The notes: generated from the letters alone by a model not told the origin. 64,000 nucleotides of DNA from Candidatus Levyibacteriota bacterium (GCA_003173895.1 PJMG01000001.1:15576-79575), one strand, 5' to 3'. Numbered from the stretch's first letter, positions 4,839 to 39,880 are shown. Numbers and translations: made by a program.

Positions 4839-4924
4839 TCTAAAAATTTGTACTTAAACTCCACTTACTAATTTCTTACCAAATTTTGAATGTCTTTTTT
4901 ACTATTTAATTCAAAATAAATCGT

Positions 4925-5149
4925 ATGGGTGAAGGAAATGGGAGAGGTTTTGCAGGAATGCCGCCTGAAAAACAGCGTTTAATTGCAAGTATGGGAGGAC
5001 GAAGAGCACATGAATTAGGTGTTGCACATACATTTACTACTGACGAAGCAAGAAAAGCAGGACGTAAAGGGGGTAAAACTTCTAGAAGGAAATCGATAAC
5101 TACGCAGAATATTTCTTTAGAACTAAATAATTCATTAACAGAACCTTAA
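4925..5149 (+). CDS. KGG-repeat general stress protein (YciG/GsiB-like)
   Basis: Repeated (E/K)AGRKGG motifs, EARKAGRKGGKTS. The gene is visibly GC-richer than its surroundings. Confidence 0.6.
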   Translation: MGEGNGRGFAGMPPEKQRLIASMGGRRAHELGVAHTFTTDEARKAGRKGGKTSRRKSITTQNISLELNNSLTEP

Positions 5150-5197
5150 TAATTTACGCCGCTGGACTAGAAGAAAAACTTATGCTAAAAATACTTC

Positions 5198-11318: not shown

Positions 11319-12518
11319 ATGTGGCAGCAAGCAAAAAATACATATCATCTTTTTCAAGGAATTACTGCTAATATTTATTATGGAAAACCTGGTAGGAAAT
11401 TAATTGTTATCGGTGTCACGGGAACTGATGGGAAAACCACTACAGTAAATCTTATTTATCATATTTTAAGAAATGCAGGGAAAAATGTATCAATTGTCTC
11501 AACTACAGGGGCCAATATACACGGAAAACAATCAAATTTAGCATTTCATGTTACTAATCCCGCTTCCTGGCCTTTACAGAAATTTTTAAATCAAGCAGCA
11601 AAAACTAACTTTAAAGAGAATTATATTGTTTTAGAAGTAAGTTCTCATGGTATTGACCAACATAGAGTATTTGGAATACCTTTTACTATTGGCGTTGTAA
11701 CTAATATAACTCCAGAACATTTGGATTATCATAAAACTTATAATGAATACGTTAGAACTAAAACTAAGCTTCTTAACAGAGCTAAAATAGCAGTAATAAA
11801 TAAGGATGATAGTTCTTATTCAAAAATATTAAGGTATCTAAAAAATAAAAATGTAGTTACTTATGGCATGGGTAAAAATGTTGATGTAAATGAAAAAATT
11901 TTCTCTTATAAATCACCTCTTATTGGAGATTTTAATAGATATAATGTTTTAGCTGCTATTAGTGCTTGTAAAAGTTTAGGACTAACAAATAAAGAGATAG
12001 CAAAAGGCATTGAAACTTTTAAAACTCCTCTAGGTAGAATGAATAAAATACCCAATAAGCTTGGAATTAATATTATTGTCGACTATGCCCATACTGCTAA
12101 TGGTATTAAACAAGCGCTAACAGCACTCAAAAAACAAAGTAAGAAAAAACTTATTGCAATTGTGGGTGGAGAAGGGTATAGAGATGAAAAGAAAAGACCT
12201 ATTATTGGAGAGGTTGCTACAAAGTTAGCTAATTATGTCATTATTAGTGCTGTGGATCCTAGAGGACTTCAAGAGGAAATTAATAAAGAAATCTTAGCAG
12301 GTGTTAAAAAGGCAGGCGGTAAATTAGATAAAAATATTTTTGTAATAAATGATCGAAAAGAAGCTATTGATTTTGCAATTAATAAACTGGCTAGAAAAGG
12401 AGATACCGTTAGTATGTTTGGTAAAGGGCATGAGAGATCTATGAATATAGATGGAAAACATGAGATTCCTTGGTCAGAATACGAAGCTGTAGCAAGTGCT
12501 CTTAAAAAACATATATAA
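11319..12518 (+). CDS. Mur ligase family protein, MurE-like, lacking the N-terminal substrate-binding domain
   Basis: Mur ligase P-loop GVTGTDGKTTT begins near residue 30. C-terminal GKGHE motif is typical of MurE. SAVDPRG sits at the position of the DNPR-type motif. Confidence 0.6.
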   Translation: MWQQAKNTYHLFQGITANIYYGKPGRKLIVIGVTGTDGKTTTVNLIYHILRNAGKNVSIVSTTGANIHGKQSNLAFHVTNPASWPLQKFLNQAAKTNFKENYIVLEVSSHGIDQHRVFGIPFTIGVVTNITPEHLDYHKTYNEYVRTKTKLLNRAKIAVINKDDSSYSKILRYLKNKNVVTYGMGKNVDVNEKIFSYKSPLIGDFNRYNVLAAISACKSLGLTNKEIAKGIETFKTPLGRMNKIPNKLGINIIVDYAHTANGIKQALTALKKQSKKKLIAIVGGEGYRDEKKRPIIGEVATKLANYVIISAVDPRGLQEEINKEILAGVKKAGGKLDKNIFVINDRKEAIDFAINKLARKGDTVSMFGKGHERSMNIDGKHEIPWSEYEAVASALKKHI

Positions 12519-24655: not shown

Positions 24656-24756
24656 ACTAAATTTAGTCTTATATTAAGATAGCATTTGCTAGAGATCCTC
24701 ATTTTAGCCTCATTTTTAGACCAAAATATTCATTCGCTTTAATTTCGTATTGCCCC

Positions 24757-24838
24757 TTGACAATCCTATAATTATTTGGTAATATATTTATTAGATCCTA
24801 AGGTATGCCTATCCAATGCATACGTTAGGATTTTTTTT
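24757..24838 (+). promoter_or_regulatory. Promoter (TTGACA-17-TAATAT) followed immediately by a long hairpin + U8 (small RNA or leader attenuator)
   Basis: TTGACA at 24757-24762, TAATAT at 24780-24785. Hairpin GATCCTAAGGTATGC...GCATACGTTAGGAT + T8 spans 24794-24838. Confidence 0.4.
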
Positions 24839-25457: not shown

Positions 25458-25539
25458 GGGTCGGTGGCGGAATTGGTATACGCGTATGGTTTAGGACCAT
25501 ATCCCGCAAGGGTTGGGGGTTCAAGTCCCTTCCGACCCA
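25458..25539 (+). tRNA. tRNA-Leu (anticodon TAG)
   Basis: Acceptor GGGTCGG/CCGACCC, anticodon stem TATGG/CCATA with loop TTTAGGA, long variable arm CCCGCAAGGG. Confidence 0.75.
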
Positions 25540-25551
25540 CTAATTAAACTT

Positions 25552-26460
25552 ATGGCAAATAAGAAAACACAAACTAAAAAAACCGAAGTTAAGAAGACAG
25601 AAGAGCAGTCAACTAAAACTGCTACTCAACCTGGTATGAAGCGTGAAGAGAATGGAAATATAGTTTTAACTATAGCCATTCCAAGTGCCAATATTAAAAA
25701 AGTCTATGAGGAAGAAATAGGAAATGCAGTAAAAAATGCTACTTTACCTGGATTTAGGCCCGGAACTGCACCTAGAGCCATGGTGGAACCTAAATTAGAT
25801 AAAGAGAAATTAAAAGAAGAAGCTTTGAAAAAACTATTACCGGAATTTTATTTAAAAGCTATTGATGAAAATAAATTAAAACCTGTTATCTCTCCTAGAA
25901 TTCATATAGAAAAATTAGATGATCCAGAAATGGGGAATAATTGGACATTTGAAGCGACTACTTGTGAAGGACCTGACGTGAATTTAGGGAACTATAAAGA
26001 TGATATAAAAAAACTAACTGCTAAAAGCAAAATTATAGTTCCAGGAAAAGAACAACCAAAACCTAGTTTAGATGAAATTTTAGCAATACTCGTAAAATCA
26101 GTAAAAGTACTTATGCCTCAAATTATATTAGATGCTGAAACTGAAAGACTTTTATCACAGCTTTTAAATGAAATTAAAAGACTAGGGTTAACTTTAGACC
26201 AATATTTAGGATCAAGTAAAAAAACTATTGAGGAGTTAAAAAAAGATTATGAAGAAAAAGCTAAAGCTGATTTAACTATAGAGTTTGCATTGGCTAAAAT
26301 AGCTGATACAGAAAAAATTGAAGTTGCTCCAGAAGAATTAAATGAAGCTTTAACTAAAGCCCAAAGTCCTGCGGAAAAAGAACAGCTTCAAAAAAATATG
26401 TATCTACTAGCTAGTGTTCTAAGACAGCAAAAAACTTTAGACTTTTTGAAAAACCTTTGA
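25552..26460 (+). CDS. tig: Trigger factor-like chaperone (N- and C-terminal domains; PPIase domain apparently absent)
   Basis: Ribosome-binding signature LPGFRPGTAP. C-terminal arm-like region. Only about 300 aa, so there is no room for an FKBP domain. The start is set at ATG 25552 because the track start overlaps the tRNA. Confidence 0.65.
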   Translation: MANKKTQTKKTEVKKTEEQSTKTATQPGMKREENGNIVLTIAIPSANIKKVYEEEIGNAVKNATLPGFRPGTAPRAMVEPKLDKEKLKEEALKKLLPEFYLKAIDENKLKPVISPRIHIEKLDDPEMGNNWTFEATTCEGPDVNLGNYKDDIKKLTAKSKIIVPGKEQPKPSLDEILAILVKSVKVLMPQIILDAETERLLSQLLNEIKRLGLTLDQYLGSSKKTIEELKKDYEEKAKADLTIEFALAKIADTEKIEVAPEELNEALTKAQSPAEKEQLQKNMYLLASVLRQQKTLDFLKNL

Positions 26461-26472
26461 TAGTATATTCTT

Positions 26473-27261
26473 GTGAATGACGATAAAAATAATAACGATC
26501 CTCTAAAAATTCAGCTTTTTGGTAAACCCACTAATGCGTCTACTAGTTCTTTAAAGAACCAAGTTTTAGGCCCTTCTAAACCTGTTCATAAAAAACCACC
26601 TAAAATAATTCATAATTATGAAACCTTATCAGAACCTGTAGACGAATTAAAAAAAGACTTAAATAAACAAGTGGGCGCTAAAGATAGTATTAAAAAAGCC
26701 TGGGAACAACTATTGGGTGCAGATAATCTTTTCTTTGGTAAAACTGGTGGGAGTAGTGGAGGACTAGAACCAGGACAAGAACTAGATTTAAAAGCATTAC
26801 AACAGCAGCAAGAACAAAAAAATGAAGAAGAGCAAAAAAAACATAATATAGATCCTCATATTAAATATAAGGATGAAATCTTACATGGTACTGAAAGAGC
26901 CATTCAAAAAGAACGTCAAGAAACTACTCGTCAAGTACAGGAATTAGTAGTAGACGTAAGACAAGCAGGTGCGGCAGCCCAAATGGACAGACAAGCTATT
27001 CAAGCTACTGAAGGTTCTATGCAAGATGTAGGTATATCTCATAAAAGACATTTACAACGATTATTATCCTGGCTCCAAGAGTTAAAAACTAAACTAGAAG
27101 ATGGAGAAAGTTGGGTAAATGCAGTACAAGGTAAGAAAAATATGAAAGGTAAAATCGGTGCTCCTGCTAAACAACAATCTAAACATCAGATGAATATTAA
27201 GAAAATGGGAGAAAAATATAGACAATCCGGAGAGCGTGCTCTTAATAGCTCTGGAAATTAG
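26473..27261 (+). CDS. Hypothetical coiled-coil protein
   Basis: ORF with charged, Q-rich composition. Confidence 0.4.
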   Translation: MNDDKNNNDPLKIQLFGKPTNASTSSLKNQVLGPSKPVHKKPPKIIHNYETLSEPVDELKKDLNKQVGAKDSIKKAWEQLLGADNLFFGKTGGSSGGLEPGQELDLKALQQQQEQKNEEEQKKHNIDPHIKYKDEILHGTERAIQKERQETTRQVQELVVDVRQAGAAAQMDRQAIQATEGSMQDVGISHKRHLQRLLSWLQELKTKLEDGESWVNAVQGKKNMKGKIGAPAKQQSKHQMNIKKMGEKYRQSGERALNSSGN

Positions 27262-27407
27262 TTTCACAATTTTATTGACTTATTTACTATTATAATGCTA
27301 AACTAATAAACATTATGAATTGGCAGTGCCTTCACTATACAACTATTAATCTCTCAGCTAGAGGGATGCATTTGTGTGGGAGGATACAAGTCTAAAAAGA
27401 AATTAAA

Positions 27408-27440
27408 TAAAAAATTCAACCTCCCAAAATGGGAGGTTTT
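27408..27440 (+). terminator. Intrinsic terminator/attenuator hairpin AACCUCCC-AAAA-UGGGAGGUU + U-run
   Basis: Perfect inverted repeat followed by a T-run, immediately before the ATG at 27450. Confidence 0.5.
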
Positions 27441-27449
27441 TTAATATTT

Positions 27450-28262
27450 ATGATAAGCGAAAACGAACAACTTAAACAAATCCAAGAAGCTAAAGCTAAT
27501 TTAAAAATAAGCTATGATAATTATTGGCGACGAAGACGTGAGGTAGGCAATCCTCACATGAGCCAAGAAATATACACATTAAGAGAAAAATTGGCACAAG
27601 CAGAGGAAGGATATAGACAAACGCTAGGTATAGATGGAATAATTGTTCCCTCACATTTTAATTCTTTTTCAAACGAAAGAAATAAAATTAGAGATTTACA
27701 AGATCGTTTTGGAATGGAAATCACTACTGTGGGAAGAATTGGTACATTGGCTTTAAATGGAGAAGATCCAATTAGAGCTGCTGAAATATTAGAAGAGCGT
27801 GGTATACACTATGCAATATTAGTATCTGGTCCTGGTGGATCATATATTATAGAAGGAAGTAAAGGACAAAAACATAGTAATATAAGAGAAGCTTTGTGGG
27901 GAGTAGAACCAGAAATTGGTTTAAGACGTCCTGATGTGTCAGGTTTCATTTTTAATATCGATGGTAGAAAATTTTTTGTTACAGACGACCCTACGGGGGA
28001 TATGCTATGGCCTTCGTTACATTTTACCTTAGATAGTGGATATCAAATGGGCGCAGAAGTATTAAACGTTAACTCTAATCTTAATGGAGCAAGAAATATT
28101 TTTAATAAAACCAGACGTCAAATAGGAATAAAAAGATTAGATGATAAATCTGCAGTCATTTTATTAGGTGAAAGTTTAAAGCCTCTAATATTAAACACAT
28201 TTAATATGCAAGCAAAAATTAATCAAATAGAAGCGCGTATTAAAGGCCATCAATTTAATTAG
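27450..28262 (+). CDS. Hypothetical protein
   Basis: ORF with start reassigned to ATG 27450, downstream of the hairpin. Confidence 0.45.
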   Translation: MISENEQLKQIQEAKANLKISYDNYWRRRREVGNPHMSQEIYTLREKLAQAEEGYRQTLGIDGIIVPSHFNSFSNERNKIRDLQDRFGMEITTVGRIGTLALNGEDPIRAAEILEERGIHYAILVSGPGGSYIIEGSKGQKHSNIREALWGVEPEIGLRRPDVSGFIFNIDGRKFFVTDDPTGDMLWPSLHFTLDSGYQMGAEVLNVNSNLNGARNIFNKTRRQIGIKRLDDKSAVILLGESLKPLILNTFNMQAKINQIEARIKGHQFN

Positions 28263-29566
28263 TTCCCGAAGAAGTTTTCGTCGAATTCCATTTGTTTTTC
28301 AATATTTTTTAGAGCGAAGTTTTCATTCATCCCATGCATCATGCCATCTTCGTTAGCAAAAGGAACTAATACCTGAGGTTTATTTAAGGTTTGATCAAAG
28401 AAAACTATGACAGGCTCTGTTCCACCTACATATCTATGCAAAACTTCTTGGTTAAATATTTCTGAAAGTATTTTTTTAGCTTTTAAAACATATTTATTAT
28501 CTACATTAATTCTGACTGGATAAGTAGCTGCTTCTGATTCAAACTCATACTCAATATAGTCTGGAATATTTTCTTTAATAAATTTTTTAAGTTGTGAAAG
28601 AATTTTTTCAGGCACTTGGTTATTTACCAACCTTATATTAAATTTAACTGTAGTTTTAGATGGAATACTGTTTCGATATCCCACTCCTGTATAACCTGAA
28701 TTAAAACCTGTAATTTCTATACTAGGTTTTTGTCCTGTTTGCTGATATAAGTCTAAACCTTCTTCTGTTAAAACAGTCTTAGTTCCAGTATTTTTTTTAT
28801 AAGTTTCTAAGTCAAATGGAATCATTACTGATTTATCTAAAGGTAAAACATCTTCATAAAATCCTTCTATCATTACTTTTCTTTCATCATCAAAAATTTT
28901 ATTAATAAATGTTATAGCTTCTTTTACAGAACTGGGCGCCGCCCCTCCATAAAGTCCGGAATGTAAATCATTATTAGAAGAGAAAAAGGTGAGAGTACAA
29001 TTTATGACTCCACGCGTTCCTAACTCTATCGTAGGTTGTCCTGCTGACATTTCACCATCTGAAATCATGATAAAATCGCATTTTAAAAGATTTTTATGCT
29101 CTTTTATAAAACCTTCAATAAATTCTGATCCTGTTTCTTCATTTCCTTCTGAAATAAATTTAATATTATATTTTAATTTTTTCTCTTTTATTAAGTTAAC
29201 AATGGTAATCATATGAACAAAAAGTTGTCCTTTATCATCCATAATCCCACGACCAAATAATTTCCCCTCTTTTTCTACTACTTCAAATGGTTCAGTGTCC
29301 CAACCATCCTCTTTAGATGCAGGTTGTACGTCATAATGGCCATAGATAAGACAAGTTTCAGCATTAGGGTTAACCACATATTCAGCAAAGAAAACAGGAT
29401 TTCCTTCAGCTTCAAAAGTCTGCGTTTTAAAACCTACTGATTCTAAATATTTAGAAAAAAATTCAACCGTTTTTGTAGCTTCTCCTTTTAAGGAAGTATC
29501 AGCAGAAACAGTTTTAAAAGAAATTAATTCCTTTACTAATTTTTTATATTCATCAAGCATTTGCAT
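28259..29566 (-). CDS. M20-family metallopeptidase (dipeptidase-like)
   Basis: GHYDVQP and FGRGIMDDKGQ motifs. Confidence 0.7.
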   Translation of the reverse strand: MQMLDEYKKLVKELISFKTVSADTSLKGEATKTVEFFSKYLESVGFKTQTFEAEGNPVFFAEYVVNPNAETCLIYGHYDVQPASKEDGWDTEPFEVVEKEGKLFGRGIMDDKGQLFVHMITIVNLIKEKKLKYNIKFISEGNEETGSEFIEGFIKEHKNLLKCDFIMISDGEMSAGQPTIELGTRGVINCTLTFFSSNNDLHSGLYGGAAPSSVKEAITFINKIFDDERKVMIEGFYEDVLPLDKSVMIPFDLETYKKNTGTKTVLTEEGLDLYQQTGQKPSIEITGFNSGYTGVGYRNSIPSKTTVKFNIRLVNNQVPEKILSQLKKFIKENIPDYIEYEFESEAATYPVRINVDNKYVLKAKKILSEIFNQEVLHRYVGGTEPVIVFFDQTLNKPQVLVPFANEDGMMHGMNENFALKNIEKQMEFDENFFGN

Positions 29567-29590: not shown

Positions 29591-30241
29591 TTATTTTATA
29601 GTAATAATATTTGGATCAGTACCTAATATCCACATTATAAAATATGGATATTGAGATAGGGTAGGATCAGTCTTAAAAGATGTAAGTCCCATTATTTCTA
29701 ATTCTTGGTGTATTTCAAATTCTTGAAGTTGGCCAAGCGCTTCCGCTGTTTGTTTATCATTTAATTCCTCATCACCAATTTCATCATAAATATAAGGATT
29801 ATACGAGCTTAGTACAGCACGTACTTCAGAATCCTCAGGGAATTTTGTTTCTAAGAGCAATTCCACTAATTTAAACGCACCAAAAAGTTTCAATCCTTTA
29901 ATAGCAGTTGCTAAAATATCTCTAGGATTAATTATCTTATCTTCAGAAGAAACTTCAGCATTAATTTCTCCATTATTTTTTGATACATATATATAAGAAT
30001 AGTTATTAGGTTGAGAAGAATTATTTGTACTTATTAATACTTTTTTAGATGAAACTTCATCCAACTGGTTCGCTGGAATTACGGATAAATATAAATGTTG
30101 GATAGTTCCATTTTCTAAATTTTGGTTAATGGTAATTATTCCTGTATCTTTCCTTAATACAGATATATCTCTATTAGATTCAACTAAATTTTTTAAATTT
30201 GTAATTGCTGTTTCTATATTCAAGCTTTCTGGATTTGACAT
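29591..30241 (-). CDS. Hypothetical protein
   Basis: ORF only. Confidence 0.4.
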   Translation of the reverse strand: MSNPESLNIETAITNLKNLVESNRDISVLRKDTGIITINQNLENGTIQHLYLSVIPANQLDEVSSKKVLISTNNSSQPNNYSYIYVSKNNGEINAEVSSEDKIINPRDILATAIKGLKLFGAFKLVELLLETKFPEDSEVRAVLSSYNPYIYDEIGDEELNDKQTAEALGQLQEFEIHQELEIMGLTSFKTDPTLSQYPYFIMWILGTDPNIITIK

Positions 30242-30319
30242 AAGCGTATTATATTAAATGTAATTCCACTTGTAAATTTAGTAGTTGACAGATAAACAAG
30301 CTGTTTGATAACATAATAT

Positions 30320-30429
30320 TCATAAATATGAAATCTACACAAATGTATATTGTCCTTTTTATTAACCGCTAAGGCGGAGGGACTTTTTCGTATAGAAAAG
30401 TTTTCAACCGCCAAATAGGCGGTTTTTTT
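30320..30429 (+). promoter_or_regulatory. Leader-peptide transcription attenuator, copy A (three hairpins ending in an intrinsic terminator)
   Basis: Hairpin 1 GUCC..CCGC-UAAG-GCGG..GGAC, hairpin 2 CUUUUU/GAAAAG, terminator AACCGCC-AAAU-AGGCGGUU + U7 at 30407-30429. An alternative GGCGG:CCGCC antiterminator is possible. Nearly identical to copy B. Confidence 0.55.
30328..30372 (+). CDS. Putative leader peptide MKSTQMYIVLFINR (14 aa)
   Basis: ATG 30328 to TAA 30370-30372. The stop codon sits in the loop of hairpin 1. The C-terminus is conserved with the copy B peptide. Confidence 0.4.
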   Translation: MKSTQMYIVLFINR

Positions 30430-30435
30430 GTGGAT

Positions 30436-31605
30436 ATGAAAGATAATTTACTTAAATTAAATTTAAAAAAAGATTATTCAGAACGTAAAAATATTGGTAC
30501 ATTTACCTCTATTTTTAGATCTCCTATGTTACAAGAATATATAGACTATTATTTAAATAAAAATTTTGTAGATAAAAATGCTTACGAATCTTTACATTAT
30601 TTAAAAGAAGATGTTTTAAGTAATTTTTTCCATTCTTTATTTGAGATAAAAGAAGGGAAAATTCTTACTACCTCTGGATCAACTGAATCTATATTATTAG
30701 CCTTATTTTATGCTAGAGAAAAAGCAAAAGTAGAAAAAGGTATTAATAAACCAAATATTATTGTAGGAGAGAATACTCATTATAGTATTCAGAATTGTGC
30801 ACGCTTCTTAAAAATACATGTAAAATATGCAGGATTAAATGATAAGTATGAAATAAATATTAAAGATGTAGAAAAAAGAATAGATAAAAATACTATTTTA
30901 TTAGTGGGTACGTTGGGTACTACGGAATTAGGAGTCGTTGATAATATTTTATTATTAGATAAATTAGCTATCGAATATAATATTCCTTTACATATTGATG
31001 CGGCTATAGGAGGCTTTATTCTCCCATTTTTAGAAAAGAATAATGATTATTCATTCTCTAGTTTAAAAAGTTTATTTTCTATGAATATATCCGGACATAA
31101 ATTTGGACTAGCCCTACCGGGTAGTGGGATACTCTTATTAAGAGAAAAACATTTAATCGATAATCATGGTGGTGAAATAGAATACTTAAGTTCAGGTAAA
31201 AGTATAGTAGAAAATCTTTTAATTTCATCTAACTCTCTTGGAGTTTTAAGTCTAGGTATAAATATATTAAGTTTAGGAAAAGAAGGATATAAAAATTTAG
31301 CTGAGAATTATTTAAAAACAAAAAAAGTATTACAGAGAGAATTAGACAATTTAAAGGTAGATTATTTTTCAGGATCTAACTACATGCCACAGTTATTTTT
31401 ACACCCAGAAAATGTTAAGGAGATATCAAAAAAACTTGCGGAAAATGGATGGATTCAACACACCTATAAGCCAAAAGGATTACAAAAAGAAGGAATTCGT
31501 ATTGTAATAAAGAATAATCAAGAAATGCTTTTAGAAAAAGACTTATTAGATGACTTAAAATTTTGGAATAAAGAGATGAAAGGAGAAAATTATATTTATG
31601 AATAA
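30436..31605 (+). CDS. PLP-dependent group II decarboxylase (MfnA/GadB-like)
   Basis: PLP-Lys motif NISGHKFGLA. Fold-type I pattern TTSGSTESILLAL...HIDAAIGG. Start taken as ATG 30436; GTG 30430 is the alternative. Confidence 0.7.
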   Translation: MKDNLLKLNLKKDYSERKNIGTFTSIFRSPMLQEYIDYYLNKNFVDKNAYESLHYLKEDVLSNFFHSLFEIKEGKILTTSGSTESILLALFYAREKAKVEKGINKPNIIVGENTHYSIQNCARFLKIHVKYAGLNDKYEINIKDVEKRIDKNTILLVGTLGTTELGVVDNILLLDKLAIEYNIPLHIDAAIGGFILPFLEKNNDYSFSSLKSLFSMNISGHKFGLALPGSGILLLREKHLIDNHGGEIEYLSSGKSIVENLLISSNSLGVLSLGINILSLGKEGYKNLAENYLKTKKVLQRELDNLKVDYFSGSNYMPQLFLHPENVKEISKKLAENGWIQHTYKPKGLQKEGIRIVIKNNQEMLLEKDLLDDLKFWNKEMKGENYIYE

Positions 31606-32959
31606 AAATGAAATACAAAATCATATAGTATTTCAAAATACTCCAGATGTATTAGACCCTGCTCAGATGAGCGGAGCTACTGGTAGAACGGCAGAATTAA
31701 TTATGAATTTATTAGCCAGAGCAAATCATATGGCTCTTACTGGAGATACTGTAATTAATTCTTCAAATGTCCCTGATGATTTTATTCAATATTTATCAGC
31801 TGTTACTGGGGAATATCCAGATATAGTAAAAACTCAAATAGAACCTCCTTTATTTACAAAAGATTTATTAGATGCTTTACCTACTGGATCTTTTGAAGGA
31901 TATTTACTTGATCCCTATATTCAGTCAAAAACTATTGCTCTATATAGTCAAGAACAAAATATACCCATGGCATATACTCCTTCTGAAACTATTTTAAATG
32001 GAGTTACCGATTTAGCAAATAATAAAAAATATTTTAGAGAAACTGCAAATCAATTAGGTATACCATTAATCCCTGATCAAGCAACGTTCACTACAGAAGA
32101 CTTTTCTGGGTTGCGAAAAAAAATTATAGATATGATGAAAAAACATAAGAGTGTATTTATACAAGCTAACAGTTCTGGTGGTGGCATTGGTAATATTGAT
32201 ATTAGAGGAAATACTTGGCAATCAAAATTAGGATTAGGTAAAGAGAAAGTTTTAGAAGAATTGAAAAAATGGATGAAAGAAATGAAAGACGCTGGATCGG
32301 ATACAATTCTTCTAGCTCCATATGTTGAATTACTTTCTAGTCCTACTGTTAGTGGATTTATTCCTAAGGAAGGCGAACCGATAATTTATGGTATTTTTGA
32401 CCAAACTTTAGATCCTACTTCTCATGACTATCAAGGATTTGAATGGCCAGCCAATGATCAATATTCAAAGATTTATGGATCTACTATGATTAAGGGAGCA
32501 AAAAAATGGTTTAAGCATCTACAAAAGTTAGGGTATGTAGGTCCTTCCGACGTGGATTACATTATAGGATACAATGATGCATTAGGAGAAGTAATAGGAG
32601 CAAGTGAATCAAATACTAGATGGGACGCATTTAGATTCGCTCTTCAACATGCAGGAAGATTACAGAGATGGAATTTAAGGACACTTGAAGGAATTGATGT
32701 TTTAAATGCTCCTTATATTAAATCTAATGATCATATACATACAAACGCAGCTTCAACTACAGAAATAGTTCAAAGATTACGTAATGGTAGAATTCCTCTG
32801 TTAGGATTAGATCATCAACAAATGGGAATTATTGTTATGGTACCTCCACAACCTACTGATAGACGAGGAGACCAACAATTAGCGTTGGCTGTTATTGGAC
32901 CAGATAAAAAAACAACGAAAAAACTTTTTGAAGATGCACAAATTTTACTGCATAGTTAA
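31598..32959 (+). CDS. ATP-grasp-like enzyme (putative amino-acid/peptide ligase)
   Basis: Gly-rich loop FIQANSSGGGIGNIDIR. The C-terminal ESNTRWD resembles the ATP-grasp E-x-N-x-R motif. Moderate confidence. Confidence 0.45.
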   Translation: MNKNEIQNHIVFQNTPDVLDPAQMSGATGRTAELIMNLLARANHMALTGDTVINSSNVPDDFIQYLSAVTGEYPDIVKTQIEPPLFTKDLLDALPTGSFEGYLLDPYIQSKTIALYSQEQNIPMAYTPSETILNGVTDLANNKKYFRETANQLGIPLIPDQATFTTEDFSGLRKKIIDMMKKHKSVFIQANSSGGGIGNIDIRGNTWQSKLGLGKEKVLEELKKWMKEMKDAGSDTILLAPYVELLSSPTVSGFIPKEGEPIIYGIFDQTLDPTSHDYQGFEWPANDQYSKIYGSTMIKGAKKWFKHLQKLGYVGPSDVDYIIGYNDALGEVIGASESNTRWDAFRFALQHAGRLQRWNLRTLEGIDVLNAPYIKSNDHIHTNAASTTEIVQRLRNGRIPLLGLDHQQMGIIVMVPPQPTDRRGDQQLALAVIGPDKKTTKKLFEDAQILLHS

Positions 32960-32964
32960 ATAAA

Positions 32965-34059
32965 ATGATTAAAATAAATAGGCAAAGACTTATAGAAAAT
33001 TTTATAGCTCTTGTTAAAACAAACAGTACTTCAGGGAATGAAAAAGATATTAGTAATTTTTTAAAAAGTAATTTAGAAAATTTAGGTGGTAAAGTAACTT
33101 TTGACTCTTATGGGAATCTTTTATCTTTTTTTGAAGGTAAAGGAGAAACAATAATATTAAATTGCCATTTAGACACAGTTCACCCAGGTGAAAATATAAG
33201 AACCATTCAAAAAGGAGATAGACTCTTTTCAGATGGTAAAACCATATTAGGAGCAGACGCAAAAGCAGGATTAGCGATAATTTTAGAGATTCTTAATTTA
33301 AGAAAAGAAAAAAAAATAAATTGTCCTCCTTTACAAATTATCCTCACTAAAGAAGAAGAATCTGGTCTTATTGGCGCTAGGAATTTAGACTTTAGTTTAG
33401 TTAAAGGGAAATATGGTTTGGTGTTTGATGGAGATTTTGGACCTGACAATATTACAATTTATGCTCCAGGTTATTATTTTTTTGAATGTTCAGTTTTAGG
33501 TAAAGCAGCTCATGCTGGAATGGAACCAGAAAAAGGCGTATCTGCTATTTTAGGTGCGGCAAAATTAATAAATAAAATTCCCTTTGGACGAATAGATTCC
33601 GAAACTACTCAAAATATCGGTATTATACAGGGTGGAGACGGTACTAATATAATTTCTAATAAAGTAATTTTTAAAGGAGAAATTAGGGGTAGAAATAAAA
33701 CTAAATTATTAAAGCAAATAAAAAAATTAAAGTTTATTATAGAAAAATTTTTAAGTGAAAATAAAAATATCAAAGTAAAATTAAATGGACAAATTATATT
33801 CGATCCTTACGCTTTTAGTCTAAAAAACAAATTTTTAAAAAAAATTCAATTAGCATATGAACCAATAGGATTAAAACCTAAATTTTTACCTTCAGGTGGA
33901 GGTACAGATGCTAATATTTTTAATAATAAGGGTTTTAATCTATTTCCTATAGGTTTTGGTGCATATAATACTCATACAACTTCTGAGTATCTAATTCTAT
34001 CTGAAATGGAAAAAACACTAATTTTTTGTATTAATCTTTTAAAAATAAAAAGAAGATAA
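32965..34059 (+). CDS. M20-family peptidase, PepT (tripeptidase)-like
   Basis: CHLDTVHPG, GADAKAGLAI and TKEEESGLIGA motifs. Confidence 0.7.
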   Translation: MIKINRQRLIENFIALVKTNSTSGNEKDISNFLKSNLENLGGKVTFDSYGNLLSFFEGKGETIILNCHLDTVHPGENIRTIQKGDRLFSDGKTILGADAKAGLAIILEILNLRKEKKINCPPLQIILTKEEESGLIGARNLDFSLVKGKYGLVFDGDFGPDNITIYAPGYYFFECSVLGKAAHAGMEPEKGVSAILGAAKLINKIPFGRIDSETTQNIGIIQGGDGTNIISNKVIFKGEIRGRNKTKLLKQIKKLKFIIEKFLSENKNIKVKLNGQIIFDPYAFSLKNKFLKKIQLAYEPIGLKPKFLPSGGGTDANIFNNKGFNLFPIGFGAYNTHTTSEYLILSEMEKTLIFCINLLKIKRR

Positions 34060-34088
34060 ATTCTTTTATCAATATTATTGTCCAGTAT

Positions 34089-34227
34089 TTGACATCATAT
34101 TTTAAATACACTATAATCTCATTATGAGTTCGAAATACGCACAAGTTTTTGTCCTTATTATTAACCGCTAAGGCGGAGGACTTTTTATATAAAAAAGTTT
34201 CAACCGCCAAAAAAGGCGGTTTTTTTG
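34089..34227 (+). promoter_or_regulatory. Sigma70 promoter (TTGACA-17-TATAAT) plus leader-peptide attenuator, copy B
   Basis: Perfect -35 and -10 at 34089-34094 and 34112-34117. Same three-hairpin element as copy A. Terminator AACCGCC-AAAAA-AGGCGGUU + U7 ends at 34227. Confidence 0.55.
34124..34171 (+). CDS. Putative leader peptide MSSKYAQVFVLIINR (15 aa), leaderless
   Basis: The ATG lies 7 nt after the -10 box. The TAA falls in the loop of hairpin 1. The C-terminal VL(I/F)INR-stop is conserved with copy A. Confidence 0.4.
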   Translation: MSSKYAQVFVLIINR

Positions 34228-34239
34228 TAAAATGAACTT

Positions 34240-35331
34240 ATGTTAGATCAAATAAAATTATTAACCAATATTTTACTCTCTATTCATTCTGTAAAAACAG
34301 AATTTGAGAATTTAAATTTAGCCTTAGAAGTGGCTGAAACAGAACTCTCTGAATTTAAAATAGAAAAATTTACCAGTAATAATTTCCCCAGCCTTTTAGT
34401 CTATAATCAACACACTTTACCTGCCAAATTTAAGGTAATTTTAAATGCTCATTTGGATGTCACACCAGCTCCTGATGAATTTTTCCATGCAAAAGAGAAA
34501 AGTGGAAAACTTTATGGTCGTGGAGTATATGATATGAAAGCAGCCGCAGCTGTAATGATTTTAGTTTTTAAAGAAATGGCTAAGAAGGTTAATTATCCGC
34601 TAGGACTTCAATTAGTAACTGATGAAGAACTAGGTGGCCATAATGGAACTAAATATCAAATAGAAAAAGGCGTAAAAAGCGATTTCGTTTTATGTGGAGA
34701 TGCTTCTAATTTAGAAGTAGTTAATAAATCTAAAGGCTTTGCTTGGATGAAGATAAGTTGTAAAGGTGCTACTTCTCATGGAGCTTATCCATGGGAAGGA
34801 GATAATGCTTTGTGGAAAATAAATCATTTTCTAAATAAATTAAAGCAAGCATTTCCAATACCTGAAAAAGATTCATGGGTTACTACTATTAATTTAGCTA
34901 AAATAGAAACATCTAATAATACATTTAATGAAATACCATCTGATTCTACAGTTTGGTTGGATATAAGATATATTCCTGAAGAAAAAAATATCTTAAGGAA
35001 AAAGATTCTAGATCTTATACCTAAAGATTTTTCTTATAAATTCGTATTAAATGAATCTTATGCATATCTAGATCCTAAGAATGAGTATATTCAGAAACTT
35101 CAAAACGCAAGCGAGAAAGTGATAAAAAAACCTTTAACTATCTCTGCTCACAATGGTGGATCTGATGCTAGACTTTATACTAATAAAGATATGGATAGCT
35201 TAGAATTCGGGCCTAAAGGTGGGAGATTACCTGATGGTAACGAATGGATAGATTTTAAAAATCTGGAAGAGTATCATAAAATTTTAAAAGAATTTTTAAA
35301 ATCAATAAATAATTTTTCATTAAACAATTAA
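34240..35331 (+). CDS. M20-family peptidase (ArgE/DapE-like), tandem paralogue 1
   Basis: NAHLDV, YGRGVYDMKA and LVTDEELGG motifs. Confidence 0.7.
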   Translation: MLDQIKLLTNILLSIHSVKTEFENLNLALEVAETELSEFKIEKFTSNNFPSLLVYNQHTLPAKFKVILNAHLDVTPAPDEFFHAKEKSGKLYGRGVYDMKAAAAVMILVFKEMAKKVNYPLGLQLVTDEELGGHNGTKYQIEKGVKSDFVLCGDASNLEVVNKSKGFAWMKISCKGATSHGAYPWEGDNALWKINHFLNKLKQAFPIPEKDSWVTTINLAKIETSNNTFNEIPSDSTVWLDIRYIPEEKNILRKKILDLIPKDFSYKFVLNESYAYLDPKNEYIQKLQNASEKVIKKPLTISAHNGGSDARLYTNKDMDSLEFGPKGGRLPDGNEWIDFKNLEEYHKILKEFLKSINNFSLNN

Positions 35332-35337
35332 CTGACC

Positions 35338-36453
35338 ATGACTATGGACGAAGATATTTTAGAATTAACTAAAAATCTAATAAGTTTACATACTGTGTCT
35401 AAAAATTCAGGAGTAAATGCTGACGCTTTAGCTTTTATAGAACATTATTTAAAGGATTCACATTTATTTTTTAAAAAATACCATAAAAATGGAATCTATA
35501 ATTTAGTTATTTCTAATAAACCAGTAACAAATAATTTTGATCTTATTTTGCATGGACACATAGATGTAATCCCTGCTACAAATCCAGAAGATTTTATTCC
35601 TAGAGTAGGGAACGGAAAATTATTTGGTCGCGGATCCATGGATATGAAAGGAGGATTGGCAGCCTTAATAGTTTTGATGAGAGAAATAGGAAAAGGAAAT
35701 ATTCAGATAGATAAAAATATTGCACTTTTTATAACTGCAGATGAAGAGTTGGGTGGAGCTAATGGAACTAAATATTTAATTCAACAGTTAGGCTATAAAT
35801 CTAAATTTTTTTTAACAGGCGAGGGAGTAAAAGAAAATTTTCCTATTTATAATAAGAGTAAAGGAGTTCTCTCTTTAAAAGTAAAATCTAAGGGAAAAGG
35901 AAAACATGCATCTCTACCTTGGTTAGGAGAAAGCGCTATAGATAATTTAATAAATTTCTATCATGATATTAGAATTTTATTTCCTAAAAAAGATAATAAA
36001 AATAATTGGTATTCTACCTGTTTATTAAGTACTATATATGGTGGAGAAGCTATTAATTCTGTATCAGAATATGCAGAAGGTAGTATAGACATACGCTTTA
36101 CAGAAGAATTCAAATCAGCAGATCAAGTTTTAGAAAAAATTTATAGTATTCAAAAAAATCATCCTGGAATTAGCTTGGAAGTAGTAGTAAAAAATGAAAT
36201 GTTAAATACTTCTAGAGATAATAACTATATTAAAATATTAGCAAATGCTGTTAAAAAAAATATCAATCCATGGAATAATTATTTTTTAAGTGCTCATGGA
36301 GTTTCAGATGCTAGATTTGCTGCTGAAAATGGAATACCTGGTGTAGAATTTGGTCCTTCTGGCAATAATAGTCATAGTACTAGTGAATATGTAAAAATTG
36401 ATAGTTTATCTGTGTTCTATGATATCTTAAAAGATTTTATTAAAAATATTTAA
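35338..36453 (+). CDS. M20-family peptidase (ArgE/DapE-like), tandem paralogue 2
   Basis: HGHIDVIP, FGRGSMDMKG and ITADEELGG motifs. Confidence 0.7.
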   Translation: MTMDEDILELTKNLISLHTVSKNSGVNADALAFIEHYLKDSHLFFKKYHKNGIYNLVISNKPVTNNFDLILHGHIDVIPATNPEDFIPRVGNGKLFGRGSMDMKGGLAALIVLMREIGKGNIQIDKNIALFITADEELGGANGTKYLIQQLGYKSKFFLTGEGVKENFPIYNKSKGVLSLKVKSKGKGKHASLPWLGESAIDNLINFYHDIRILFPKKDNKNNWYSTCLLSTIYGGEAINSVSEYAEGSIDIRFTEEFKSADQVLEKIYSIQKNHPGISLEVVVKNEMLNTSRDNNYIKILANAVKKNINPWNNYFLSAHGVSDARFAAENGIPGVEFGPSGNNSHSTSEYVKIDSLSVFYDILKDFIKNI

Positions 36454-36460
36454 ATTATTT

Positions 36461-37531
36461 ATGATTGACCAAATTAAATCTCTAAGCAGTTTACTTATTT
36501 CTATTCCTTCTGTAAAAGGAGATAGAAAAAGTTTAGACTTAGTTTTAACAGTAGCTAAACAAGAACTTTCAGACTTTAAAGTAAAAGAATTTGAAAGTAA
36601 TAATATTCCTAGTTTACTAGTTTATAATACTGAAACTTTACCTGAAAAATTTAAAGTTTTAATTAGTGCTCATTTAGATGTCGTTCCTGCTAAAAAAGAT
36701 CAATTTAATGCGGTTGAGAAAAATGGCCGGCTTTATGGTCGTGGAGCATATGATATGAAAGCTGGTGCAGCTGCCAGTATATTAGTATTTAAAGAAGTAG
36801 CTAAAAAAGTGAATTATCCCTTTGGCCTTCAATTAGTAACTGATGAGGAAATTGGTGGATATGATGGTGCTTTATATCAAGTGAAACAGGGAGTTAAAAC
36901 TGATTTTGTTATAGCCGGTGATTCATCTAACTTCTCGATGGTAACAGAAGCTAAAACACTCTTCTGGATAAAAGTTAGTGCACCGGGTAAAACAGAACAT
37001 GCAGGTTATCCCTGGTTGGGAGACAATGCAATTGATAAGATGGTAGATTTTGCTAAAAGAGTAAAAGAAGAATTTCCCACTTTAAAAGAAGATAAATGGA
37101 CCAATACAGTAACACTCTCTAAAATAGAAACTAATAATATAGCAATTAATAAAATACCTGCTGACTGTAGTACTACGTTTGATATTCGTTGTATTCCTGA
37201 AGATAGAGAAAAAGTTTTTAATAAATTTATCAGTTTAATTCCTAAAAATTTTAAATATGAAGTTTTATTAGATGAACCCGCAGAATTAACTCCTAAAGAT
37301 AGTCCATATTTACAGAAATTAGTCTCTACAGTTGAAAAAGTGACTGGAAAAAGACCAGAAATGATTACTAAACACGGTCTATCTGATGTACGTTTTTTTA
37401 TGGAACAAGGAGCACATGGTACCCAATTTGGTCCCAAGGGAGCAGGACATCATAGTGATGATGAGTGGGTAGACCTTAAAAATTTAAATGACTACTATCA
37501 TATATTAAAAAACTTCCTCCTTTCACTTTAA
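36461..37531 (+). CDS. M20-family peptidase (ArgE/DapE-like), tandem paralogue 3
   Basis: SAHLDVVP, YGRGAYDMKA and LVTDEEIGG motifs. Very similar to 34240..35331. Confidence 0.7.
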   Translation: MIDQIKSLSSLLISIPSVKGDRKSLDLVLTVAKQELSDFKVKEFESNNIPSLLVYNTETLPEKFKVLISAHLDVVPAKKDQFNAVEKNGRLYGRGAYDMKAGAAASILVFKEVAKKVNYPFGLQLVTDEEIGGYDGALYQVKQGVKTDFVIAGDSSNFSMVTEAKTLFWIKVSAPGKTEHAGYPWLGDNAIDKMVDFAKRVKEEFPTLKEDKWTNTVTLSKIETNNIAINKIPADCSTTFDIRCIPEDREKVFNKFISLIPKNFKYEVLLDEPAELTPKDSPYLQKLVSTVEKVTGKRPEMITKHGLSDVRFFMEQGAHGTQFGPKGAGHHSDDEWVDLKNLNDYYHILKNFLLSL

Positions 37532-37564
37532 CTTAAAAATATCCTTTGGTATAATCAAACAACG

Positions 37565-37637
37565 GACGGTTAGCTCAGTTGGTTAGAGCGTTACATTGAC
37601 ATTGTAAAGGTCACTGGTTCGAGTCCAGTACCGTCCA
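37565..37637 (+). tRNA. tRNA-Val (anticodon GAC)
   Basis: Acceptor GGACGGT/ACCGTCC, D-arm GCTCAGTTGGTTAGAGC, anticodon stem TTACA/TGTAA with loop TTGACAT, T-arm ACTGGTTCGAGTCCAGT. Confidence 0.8.
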
Positions 37638-37662
37638 CTAAATAATTTGCTACAATACTATT

Positions 37663-38545: not shown

Positions 38546-38684
38546 TTGCGTCGATAAATTATTCATGTTAATATATTTTTATGATTAAAAATATCGCAAT
38601 GAATTGTCCAACTACAAAGTCAACTTCTGATTAGGAGGTTTTCTTTTTGTGGAAAAGTATAACCTCCGAAAGGAGGTTTTTTTT
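38546..38684 (+). promoter_or_regulatory. Promoter (TTGCGT-17-TGtTAATAT) plus leaderless leader-peptide attenuator, copy C
   Basis: Antiterminator GGAGGUU (38634-38640) pairs with AACCUCC. The competing terminator AACCUCC-GAAA-GGAGGUU + U8 lies at 38661-38684. The leader-peptide stop codon overlaps the antiterminator 5' arm. Confidence 0.5.
38581..38634 (+). CDS. Putative leader peptide MIKNIAMNCPTTKSTSD (17 aa), leaderless
   Basis: ATG is 7 nt after the -10 box. The last seven sense codons include three Thr and two Ser. TAG lies at 38632-38634. Confidence 0.35.
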   Translation: MIKNIAMNCPTTKSTSD

Positions 38685-38692
38685 GTGCCTTT

Positions 38693-39880
38693 ATGGAATT
38701 AAAAATACAACCATCATTACAACCATTACATGAATTAGCAGAAAGCTCTTTTTCTTATGGTAGAGCACAGGCTAAAATACAACCTTTAGAGCAAGCTAAT
38801 AGAAATTCTCGTGTAATAGCTAGAAAATTAGGAGAGATCGTAGAGGGATTACAATTATCTATCGACATTCCTGAAACAAGAAGAATAATTAGTCATGATA
38901 ATGGCAATGCCTTTGCTGAAGTAATTTTAAACGGAAAAAAACATTTTATTATGGCTAGAACACCATTAGATGGAAGAAACTTTAGTGAATCTCTACAAGA
39001 ACAGAAGCCTGAAGTAACTATCGTAAGTGGTCCATGTTTATTTAGTGCCGATGCAGTACAAGCTATTTCTCATGAAGGAGAAAACTTTGCCCTTACTAGG
39101 CGCGGAGAAATAATTAATCAAACTATTTCTCATATAAATGTTGATAATAATTTATCCTTGTATGAAGCAGAAGCTATTTCTAGATTAAGTACTTTAATTC
39201 ATGATTTAGTACAAAATAACCAACATATTAAACACGTCGCGCTTAATATTCCAGAAGCAGAATATTATCTTTTTGGTCTGGAAGCATTTGAACAAGGACA
39301 TCTCTCTTCTCATCAATTAAGAGAATGGTTTAATAATGTGGATTATAGACATGATAGGCAAATTAAATTAATTAAAAATAGAATTCAAAGAGGTACAAAT
39401 GTAGAAATTTATGAATCTTCACCTCTTTTACCTGTTAAAAACTATATACGTATTAAAGTATTAAATAATGAATTACCAACCTTTTCTGAAGCTGTTGAAT
39501 TATTATCAGAAAATAATGAATTATGGAGAGATCTCTTTGCTGTAAGTAAAATTAACAATTGGCAAGATATTATTGATTTATCTTATGTATATGCTGAACT
39601 TGAAGCAGGAGAACAACACGGTGGAAAACCTACATTCGCTCTAGTTATAGAAAATCCAACTGAAAATAAAATATTTGCTAATGCTAAAAAGGTAGCTATA
39701 GAACTTCAGAAAATACGCTCAAGAATTTTTAATGTTGTGGCCATTTATCCTCATGAATTAATTCTTCCTGTAGGAGATAATGCTAATAGAACTATGTATC
39801 ATATAACAGAAACTACTGATGATAAATTTTCATTATTTAGACAAATTGTTAATATATATAGGAGAGGAGGATCTGTATGA
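38693..39880 (+). CDS. Hypothetical protein
   Basis: ORF, first gene downstream of attenuator C. Overlaps the next gene by 4 nt. Confidence 0.45.
   Translation: MELKIQPSLQPLHELAESSFSYGRAQAKIQPLEQANRNSRVIARKLGEIVEGLQLSIDIPETRRIISHDNGNAFAEVILNGKKHFIMARTPLDGRNFSESLQEQKPEVTIVSGPCLFSADAVQAISHEGENFALTRRGEIINQTISHINVDNNLSLYEAEAISRLSTLIHDLVQNNQHIKHVALNIPEAEYYLFGLEAFEQGHLSSHQLREWFNNVDYRHDRQIKLIKNRIQRGTNVEIYESSPLLPVKNYIRIKVLNNELPTFSEAVELLSENNELWRDLFAVSKINNWQDIIDLSYVYAELEAGEQHGGKPTFALVIENPTENKIFANAKKVAIELQKIRSRIFNVVAIYPHELILPVGDNANRTMYHITETTDDKFSLFRQIVNIYRRGGSV

Follow-up and report, generated by a model that had tools for sequence, protein, structure and literature searches.

Putative leader-peptide attenuators on apparently leaderless or near-leaderless transcripts upstream of a decarboxylase, ATP-grasp ligase and M20 peptidase cluster in a Microgenomates-type bacterium

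Introduction

Several amino acid operons of enterobacteria (ilvGMEDA, ilvBN, leu, pheA, thr and trp) are preceded by attenuators, in which a short open reading frame (ORF) near the promoter is enriched in codons for the regulatory amino acids and the transcript can fold into 1:2, 2:3 and 3:4 helices that exclude one another, an intrinsic terminator lying ahead of the first structural gene; the ilv leaders are multivalent, combining Ile, Val and Leu. In Firmicutes, CodY, a protein repressor that senses free branched-chain amino acids and GTP, controls genes for peptidases and oligopeptide uptake. A further variant is found in mycobacteria, where leaderless short ORFs encoding polycysteine sense Cys by ribosome stalling at the heads of operons (bioRxiv 10.1101/834739). 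Here we describe two candidate attenuators in a stretch of 64,000 nucleotides (nt) from Candidatus Levyibacteriota bacterium (GCA_003173895.1, PJMG01000001.1:15576-79575), which we call the window and from whose first letter all positions without another label are counted. They head two operons that encode a decarboxylase, an ATP-grasp ligase and four M20 peptidases, in the genome of an ultrasmall bacterium of the Microgenomates type (Patescibacteria).

The window leaders have in common with the enterobacterial attenuators the promoter-proximal ORF, the exclusive helices and the terminator, and with the ilv leaders the mixed Ile/Val/Leu composition. They differ in their lineage, in the position of the ORF at or near the 5' end of the transcript without a Shine-Dalgarno (SD) sequence, in being much shorter (~100 nt), in having peptidases and a decarboxylase/ligase pair as targets instead of biosynthetic enzymes, and in belonging to no Rfam leader family. 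Like the mycobacterial elements they are leaderless-looking short ORFs at operon heads that would sense amino acids by stalling, but the residues are Ile, Leu, Val and Phe and not Cys, an obvious intrinsic terminator and antiterminator are present, and the lineage is unrelated. The likeness to CodY is a functional analogy, branched-chain status controlling peptide-use genes in an amino-acid-dependent bacterium; the mechanism is entirely different, being a cis-acting attenuator that would sense tRNA charging. A 2024 perspective described physiological regulation in Patescibacteria as 'virtually unknown' (PMC11665869), and in our literature searches we found no report of leader-peptide attenuation in these bacteria, which also go by the name candidate phyla radiation (CPR). 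The mechanism as such is known; new here are the lineage, the targets and the systematic reliance on compact attenuators (~100 nt) whose leader ORFs are leaderless or nearly so.

Two operons with two similar leaders

The cluster at 30436-37531 comprises six genes on the plus strand: a group II pyridoxal phosphate (PLP) decarboxylase (30436-31605, with an alternative GTG start at 30430), a PGM1/BesA-like ATP-grasp carboxylate-amine ligase (31598-32959), a PepT-like M20 metallopeptidase (32965-34059) and three M20 paralogues of ArgE/DapE type, A (34240-35331), B (35338-36453) and C (36461-37531), as identified from the ORF listing and family searches. The gene-to-gene junctions are -8, 5, 6 and 7 nt, and the single larger gap (180 nt, 34060-34239) is occupied by the second leader; the region therefore consists of two tightly packed operons. 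An earlier note, made from this DNA alone, had proposed two transcription units headed by two copies of one leader-peptide attenuator, and both proposals were borne out: two promoters accompany the two packed units, and each of the two leaders has a promoter, an ORF and a terminator of its own.

Operon 1 is preceded by a promoter found in a promoter scan at 30285-30314 (TTGACA, 18-nt spacer, TAACAT, TG-extended). The first ATG past its -10 box opens leader ORF 1 (30328-30372, MKSTQMYIVLFINR, stop UAA). Folding places a 1:2 hairpin at 30352-30383 (GUCCUU..CCGC-UAAG-GCGG-AGGGAC), the 3' half of which (30372-30383) is region 2, and a 3:4 intrinsic terminator at 30406-30429 (AACCGCC-AAAUA-GGCGGUU plus U-run) that ends 6 nt 5' of the decarboxylase ATG. 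Leader 2 repeats this plan, also on the plus strand, with a promoter at 34089-34117 (TTGACA, 17-nt spacer, TATAAT) whose -10 box ends 6 nt before the ATG of leader ORF 2 (34124-34171, MSSKYAQVFVLIINR, stop UAA), a 1:2 hairpin at 34151-34181 and a 3:4 terminator at 34202-34226, which ends 13 nt before the start codon of M20 A. The two leaders are 80% identical, and a 3-nt indel inside the ORF preserves the frame. Their core 27-mer has only these two sites in the 64 kb, with 0 expected. An independent scan of the 27-39 kb region returned the same two promoters as the best ones, that of operon 2 scoring 12/12 as a perfect TTGACA-17-TATAAT, while the four strongest plus-strand terminators all fell within 5' leaders and the others were weak (3 G-C pairs).

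In both leaders a CCGC/GCGG hairpin, lengthened by GUCC(UU)/(AG)GGAC, has the stop codon of the ORF in its loop. A small U/A hairpin follows, and then a third helix, AACCGCC-loop-GGCGGUU with its U-run. Region 2 (GGCGG) can pair alternatively with region 1 (CCGC) or region 3 (CCGCC), which gives the exclusive 1:2, 2:3 and 3:4 pairings of an attenuator. Since the gene upstream of leader 1 is divergent, the hairpin of this leader is not the terminator of that gene. Rfam searches at gathering and at permissive thresholds yielded only tRNAs and a sub-threshold Phe_leader (RF01859; 32.1 bits against a threshold of 55, full-length on leader 1 and with no score for leader 2); no other family came near its threshold.

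Conservation of the operon and of the leader architecture

Named relatives come from Woesebacteria and from metagenome-assembled genomes of the 'Microgenomates group'. The order decarboxylase, ATP-grasp, M20 recurs in four other lineages (L005, L015, L016 and L017) and on the contig of P0006. Decarboxylase followed by ATP-grasp with no adjoining M20 is found in L003, L001/L013 and L014, ATP-grasp followed by M20 with the decarboxylase absent in L004, and ATP-grasp alone in L011. The decarboxylase-ATP-grasp(-M20) unit is present in about ten independent contigs with differing neighbourhoods and is nearly always headed by such a leader, which strengthens the earlier suggestion of a co-regulated amino-acid or peptide module.

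The same leader layout was found at 9 of the 10 related decarboxylase/ATP-grasp operon heads for which DNA was available, all on other Microgenomates contigs, as well as at three M20 heads. At those nine it consists of a promoter, an ORF of 14-29 codons, a region 2 complementary to the terminator's 5' arm, and the terminator itself adjoining the start codon. Compared between genomes, the leader is conserved as an architecture with unrelated sequence. An exact-motif search for the CCGC-UAA-GGCGG core of the window found nothing in the related loci, and the region 2:region 3 pairs differ from locus to locus (for example CGGGUGC:GCACCCG, GGACGGAGGG:CCCUCCGUCC, GUGAUGAGAG:CUCUCAUCAC and GGGAGGUUGU:ACAACCUCCC). 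With dinucleotide shuffles as the reference, drawn from the upstream leader, the region 2:region 3 duplex was stronger than expected (p < 0.05) in 14/18 leaders, with a mean z of -2.5.

The leaders fall into two classes. Class A, to which both window leaders and those of L004, L011, L014 and L021 belong, has ORFs of 13-16 codons with the stop 3-6 nt before region 2, and the encoded peptides are alike (..YIVLFINR, ..VFVLIINR, ..IIVALLINP, ..IIVVLLLNP, ..IILGLLLNLA and ..TILLFITH). In class B (L003, L005, L013, L015, L016, L017 and L024) the ORFs have 25-29 codons and run through region 2. One class B leader, before the decarboxylase of L005, has its spacer between region 2 and the terminator occupied by five tandem copies of AGAAATTA (3808-3847).

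Leaders of relatives in the same lineage provide cognate controls. At L014 4388-4480, a threonine dehydratase gene is preceded by a leader in which 4 of 13 residues are Ile (MTLQIKSINIINS); this Ile-rich leader has a terminator and a leaderless promoter to itself. On a Gottesmanbacteria contig (L024) there are two further cases, at 4657-4790 and 2211-2342: one of these loci has a leader with 7 Phe, 2 Tyr and 1 Trp (MSKQSFQTFYFWFYFTDLKFGGIVLFKK, ..FQTFYFWFYF..) and a terminator upstream of prephenate dehydratase, and the other an I/L/V leader (MNRQNLLINVINVLLIGG..) heading an ilvA operon. Such pairings of leader and gene are what amino acid sensing predicts, and they are hard to explain as accidental ORFs. 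In Levybacteria (L021 4307-4413), a Thr/Leu/Asn leader (MKPARILTNRTLLTNP) also stands before a small ORF located downstream of ilvA. A structured leader at L022 4300-4511, before trpE-trpG-trpD of a Daviesbacteria contig (~200 nt, ending in a 17-bp perfect hairpin and U-run), is T-box-like by eye, but Rfam gave no match for it.

Two further features recur among the leaders. Region 2 of nearly all of them has a GGAGG-like (SD-like) motif, despite the rarity of SD sequences at gene starts, and leaders of one genome have stem sequences in common, which read CCGCC in the window, CCCGC in L004 and CCCGCC in L011. Such patterns suggest duplication, concerted evolution, or contact with the anti-SD of the terminating ribosome.

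Leader ORFs: start sites, composition and simulated stalling

All 21 leaders collected have a short ORF in the promoter-proximal position, of 14 and 15 codons in the window. As read from the upstream sequences, the leader ATG lies 5-9 nt past a recognisable -10 box in 13/18 leaders, and the transcripts would therefore be leaderless or nearly so. Leaderless starts look common in the window genome generally, judging by its gene starts: of 52 window ORFs of at least 150 amino acids (aa), 23 have a -10-like TAnnnT box 4-10 nt before a start codon and only 8 an SD-like motif. Among these 23 are ThrRS, the divergent 216-aa gene and a gene with an HD domain; operon-internal genes are also without SD.

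The leader ORFs are biased in composition, with 43% Ile, Leu, Val and Phe against 29% in the window proteome (binomial p = 1e-8) and a depletion of acidic residues (Asp and Glu) and Lys. Codons with U at position 2 number 159/335 in the chosen frame; one of the other two frames has 83 and the remaining one, frame +1, is considered below.

We simulated stalling by masking the mRNA to 12 nt beyond the first base of the A-site codon. At equilibrium over the full leader, a stall in the hydrophobic run lowered the probability of the terminator in about two-thirds of the leaders, leader 1 included but leader 2 not convincingly so. As a co-transcriptional proxy, the RNA was truncated short of the terminator's 3' arm. 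For most leaders, among them both of the window, region 2 then sequestered the terminator's 5' arm when the ribosome stood in the hydrophobic run, and the arm was free when the ribosome was at the stop or within the final 1-3 codons; L005 and L015 showed little change. The amino-acid-rich run ended at the last permissive codon (..YIVLF|INR*, ..VFVLI|INR*, ..IKSINIIN|S*, ..YFWFYFTD|..).

Proposed mechanism

These data make it most likely that the window leaders are true ribosome-mediated attenuators on leaderless or near-leaderless mRNAs, mainly because the architecture is kept with unrelated sequence and because cognate leaders stand before threonine dehydratase and prephenate dehydratase. We assign a probability of roughly 0.7 to both operons being induced by a shortage of charged tRNA for Ile, Val, Leu and Phe. 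The sequence architecture, its conservation, the folding energetics, the codon bias and the cognate leaders are observed; that the mini-ORFs are translated, the direction in which they would regulate and the signal that they would read are inferred from these. Transcription would begin at, or just ahead of, the AUG of the 14- or 15-codon ORF. With charged tRNA scarce for Ile, Val, Leu or Phe (possibly also Tyr), the ribosome would stall within Y-I-V-L-F-I or V-F-V-L-I-I and mask region 1 (GUCC..CCGC), leaving region 2 (GGCGG) to pair with region 3 (CCGCC). This pairing would block the terminator and let RNA polymerase enter the operon. A ribosome that reaches the last codons (I-N-R-stop) would instead mask region 2, so that the 3:4 terminator forms and transcription stops a few nt before the first gene.

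A number of observations weigh against this interpretation or limit it. Some concern the reading of the ORFs. The ATG of leader 1 lies 13 nt past the -10 box and has no SD; the leader ORFs were picked by eye; the regulatory codons are mixed, with no run of a single amino acid, and the window targets are without a definable cognate amino acid. Frame +1 is likewise rich in U at codon position 2 (128/335), and base composition therefore contributes to the hydrophobic bias. Others concern the switch itself. The antiterminator helix of the window leaders is short (~5 bp, -11 kcal/mol including flanks), and in the equilibrium simulation leader 2 kept a terminator probability of at least 0.6 at all stall positions. 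In the proxy without a ribosome the 2:3 pairing still formed in the window leaders (0.64 and 0.71); the default state is therefore uncertain, and an untranslated leader may be read through by default and not super-attenuated. A comparison of synonymous with compensatory substitutions is prevented by distance, as the best homologue is 50% identical. Lastly, a decarboxylase that consumes an amino acid is an odd member of an operon induced by starvation.

Alternative explanations

The alternative that survives best, if still an unlikely one, is that the leaders are bound by a metabolite or a protein, in the manner of riboswitches, PyrR or TRAP, the small ORFs being incidental to pyrimidine-rich stems. 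A pyrimidine-rich region 1, needed for pairing with a purine-rich region 2, would itself favour codons for Leu, Phe, Ser and Pro, and the U-rich frame +1 fits this; a shared trans-acting factor could also cause the greater likeness of leaders within a genome than between genomes. Across genomes, however, only the three-helix logic is kept and no aptamer-like sequence is conserved, no match reaches an Rfam gathering score, and the leaders are only ~100 nt long. Moreover, both the distance from ATG to -10 box and that from stop codon to region 2 are conserved, and the amino acids of the leader match the downstream gene for ilvA and pheA.

A second possibility keeps translation and reverses the signal: the leader peptides could be ligand-sensing arrest peptides of the TnaC/SpeFL kind, which would turn on a catabolic operon when its substrate is abundant. 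The operon content does look catabolic, SpeFL controls a decarboxylase, and several class A peptides end in Pro-stop or Asn-Pro-stop, a context of slow termination. We regard this as quite improbable nonetheless, given that no peptide motif is common to the loci and the C-terminal residues vary, that the geometry predicts termination and not read-through when the ribosome is at the stop codon, and that the cognate Ile and Phe leaders head biosynthetic genes.

It is very unlikely that the mini-ORFs are precursor or substrate peptides of the PGM1-like ligase, in the style of pheganomycin or of ribosomally synthesised and post-translationally modified peptides, with the M20s as processing peptidases. 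PGM1, which ligates ribosomally made peptides, is among the closest structural relatives of the ligase by fold, and the small ORFs are immediately upstream of the ligase operon; yet mini-ORFs of the same kind precede M20s, ilvA, pheA and genes of no family, none of them with a ligase adjoining, their peptides are not conserved and overlap the competing RNA helices and the terminator, and Asp, Glu and Lys, the side chains cross-linked by graspetide-type ligases, are depleted in them. Equally remote is the notion that the hairpins are ordinary intergenic terminators or insulators with no regulatory part, for although operon 1, which has no other terminator after 34059, might be ended by that of leader 2 as well, terminator 1 follows a divergent promoter region with no plus-strand gene upstream, terminator 2 is separated from the upstream gene by a consensus promoter, and the conserved alternative pairings are present.

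M20 peptidases

All five M20 proteins, the four of the cluster and a dipeptidase upstream on the minus strand (28259-29566), exceed the Pfam cut-offs (Peptidase_M20 and M20_dimer), and the Pfam and NCBIfam searches agree with the family calls of the earlier note for these peptidases and for the PLP group II decarboxylase. Candidate metal-ligand motifs (HxD, D-x-K and (D/E)EE) are present in all four cluster M20s; in the upstream dipeptidase, which has no attenuator and lies downstream of the 216-aa ORF at 29591-30241, NEE replaces EE. The matches stay under the equivalog and subfamily cut-offs (172-192 against 217.6 bits for TIGR01910, and 243 against 274 bits for TIGR01883, the PepT-like model).

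The earlier note had taken the tandem triplication of the M20s as a sign of recent widening of the substrate range; a recent triplication was rejected. A and C are 50% identical and B is 32-33% identical to either, with B in a different clade, grouping with the operon-linked M20s of L005, L015 and L016, and with 40-45% relatives of A and C in L004, L011 and L017. The idea is unsupported because the paralogues are this divergent and have separate relatives elsewhere; by these comparisons they are old paralogues.

The third operon gene is always an M20 and its subfamily varies: the window and L004 have a PepT-like enzyme in this place, the other loci an ArgE/DapE-like one. In L011, one M20 gene lies behind a class A I/V/L leader and a second one behind an S-adenosylmethionine (SAM)-I riboswitch with a terminator (11686-11837; 42.4 bits, just under the gathering score of 44.4, with a local E of 8e-9), which suggests that this second gene responds to methionine or SAM limitation. 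M20 paralogues seem to be individually wired to amino acid sensors, which fits a role as amino acid supply genes. We give an even chance to the specific activity that would follow, namely that the M20s free hydrophobic residues from peptides or from N-acylated amino acids; induced under a shortage of hydrophobic or branched-chain amino acids, they would replenish the pool from these sources.

ATP-grasp ligase and decarboxylase

The product of 31598-32959 is hardly visible to family models, with a sub-threshold Pfam PreAtp-grasp hit (18.2 against 27.5 bits) and no NCBIfam match of any kind. By sequence it matches a solved ATP-grasp peptide ligase, 8ynd (E 7.7e-6). Two motifs, SGGGIGN (residue 193) and ESNTR (residue 337), consist mostly of residues invariant across the family alignment, and SGGGIGN and ESNTRW are aligned to RSGGGHGN and EINARW of 8ynd. 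An AlphaFold model built with 14 homologues in the alignment has a mean pLDDT of 92.5, and Foldseek ranks 8ynd first in the Protein Data Bank (PDB; E 3e-24, TM 0.72-0.81), followed by PGM1 (3wvq/3wvr), BesA (8yi6) and then PurK and biotin carboxylases; E ranges from 3e-24 to 3e-15 and TM from 0.66 to 0.81 over 8ynd, PGM1 and BesA, and E from 3e-24 to 8e-21, with TM 0.7-0.8, over 8ynd and PGM1 alone. An ATP-grasp fold with a pre-ATP-grasp N-terminal domain is thus confirmed at the level of the predicted structure. The ATP-grasp call of the earlier note, chosen beforehand as its refutation test, holds by sequence match, model and Foldseek alike.

The ligase resembles PGM1 (3wvq), the Streptomyces protein 8ynd and BesA (8yi6) in its whole-chain fold, SGGGxGN loop, E-x-N-x-RW motif and length (~450 aa). 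It differs in sequence (12-19% identity) and in setting, a small operon of primary-metabolism type in a reduced genome in contrast to an actinomycete biosynthetic cluster. A word-based search of 5.8 billion proteins recovered 14 homologues, none of them, besides the protein itself, above 50% identity. An exhaustive hidden Markov model search of 1.84 billion representative proteins counted ~10 clusters under 1e-70, 15 under 1e-30 and 441 under 1e-3, and scans with the ligase alignment gave only 2 loci genome-wide and 5 loci metagenome-wide. The family is very rare and restricted to CPR bacteria. Weak links join more distant relatives to ATP-grasp_3, BesA and LdmS; one such relative (P0035) has its ATP-grasp domain fused to a C-terminal gamma-glutamyl cyclotransferase domain (GGACT/AIG2-like). 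The ligase operon of L004, which has no decarboxylase, has as divergent neighbours (4045-5999, minus strand) a MATCAP/DUF1704-type peptidase gene and a GATase/peptidase-C26 (gamma-glutamyl-hydrolase-like) gene. The BesA-like relatives, the GGACT fusion and the C26/GATase gene are circumstantial hints at gamma-glutamyl chemistry.

For the decarboxylase, membership of the group II PLP family is secure from its match to Pfam Pyridoxal_deC (PF00282; E 5.5e-29, 101.5 bits where the cut-off is 27) and its lysine motif (SGHK at residue 219, inside SGHKFGLA), and solved relatives in the PDB are GADs, sphingosine-1-phosphate lyases and MfnA. It scores below both equivalog cut-offs (192.8 against 299.4 bits for MfnA, TIGR03812; 180.1 against 380.4 bits for GAD, TIGR01788), and is accordingly described as MfnA/GAD-like only, with no substrate assigned.

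In archaea the tyrosine decarboxylase MfnA is paired with the ATP-grasp tyramine-glutamate ligase MfnD, and in animals GADL1, carnosine synthase and carnosinase form a trio of decarboxylase, ligase and an M20 enzyme that hydrolyses the product. The window pair is alike in combining a group II decarboxylase, whose best models are MfnA and GAD, for the amine with an ATP-grasp enzyme for the amide bond; it differs in that the decarboxylase stays under the equivalog cut-offs and the ligase is PGM1-like. By analogy, the decarboxylase may convert an amino acid to an amine, which the ligase may join to a carboxylate by an amide bond, possibly as a gamma-glutamyl or omega-aminoacyl conjugate. We consider this the weakest part of our proposal, and doubtful.

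A possible amino-acid-sensing regulon

Taken more widely, and only tentatively, the data would be compatible with a Microgenomates-wide, amino-acid-sensing regulon of leaderless attenuators, whose most conserved non-biosynthetic target would be an unrecognised decarboxylase/PGM1-like ligase/M20 pathway that makes or turns over a new amide-linked amine metabolite, acting in the starvation response of an obligate symbiont. If true, switches that can be read from sequence would reveal which nutrients are monitored (Ile, Leu, Val and Phe here; Ile, aromatics and methionine/SAM in relatives) and which genes respond. The elements are small enough for reporter tests and are potential native control parts for the emerging genetic tools in these bacteria. 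The attenuators would also tie the conserved decarboxylase-ligase operon to amino acid supply, and the rare ligase family is a well-defined target for enzymology.

Genomic setting and further elements

The cluster occupies a variable slot between trigger factor-DUF5660 (25513-27261) and ThrRS-IF3-L35-L20 (from 40977), which is filled by RidA-IlvA in Levybacteria. Two more attenuator-like leaders, at 27.3 and 38.6 kb, are found within the same 13.7-kb island, both on the plus strand. The first (27315-27442) has a 26-codon ORF (MNWQCLHYTTINLSARGMHLCGRIQV) that is not hydrophobic-rich, and GUGGGAGG is able to pair with CCUCCCA of a strong terminator (27418-27442). It heads an ORF at 27450-28262 (or from 27429), abutting the terminator, for which Pfam gave no match. 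The second (38581-38684) has a leaderless 17-codon ORF (MIKNIAMNCPTTKSTSD), Thr/Ser-rich near the switch point, whose stop overlaps region 2 (UAGGAGGUU), and a terminator at 38661-38684; it precedes genes for a 395-aa protein and an S-Me-THD-like (DUF917-type) protein. The proteins encoded at 29591-30241 and 38693-39880 had no Pfam, NCBIfam or PDB sequence match.

A tRNA-Val(GAC) gene lies immediately 3' of the attenuator-controlled cluster in three lineages (window 37564-37638; L004 10519-10593; L001 3194-3270, the same as L013 7401-7477). We rejected the idea that this tRNA is necessarily co-transcribed with the M20 operon because the window copy is preceded by a separate -10 box (TATAAT, 8 nt before the tRNA 5' end).

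Upstream of a 184-aa glucosaminidase-like ORF, a different element at 24740-24838 has a conserved promoter (CTTGACAAnCCTATAnTTAnTTG..) followed immediately by a long near-perfect hairpin (AGATCCTnAGGTA....TACGTnAGGATTT) and U-run. No mini-ORF is present in it, and the window copy has no Rfam match. The hairpin is kept in three genera (also at L004 720-820 and L021 150-244), with a compensatory A/C-T/G change in L004, and the element may represent a small RNA or else an attenuator that depends on a protein.

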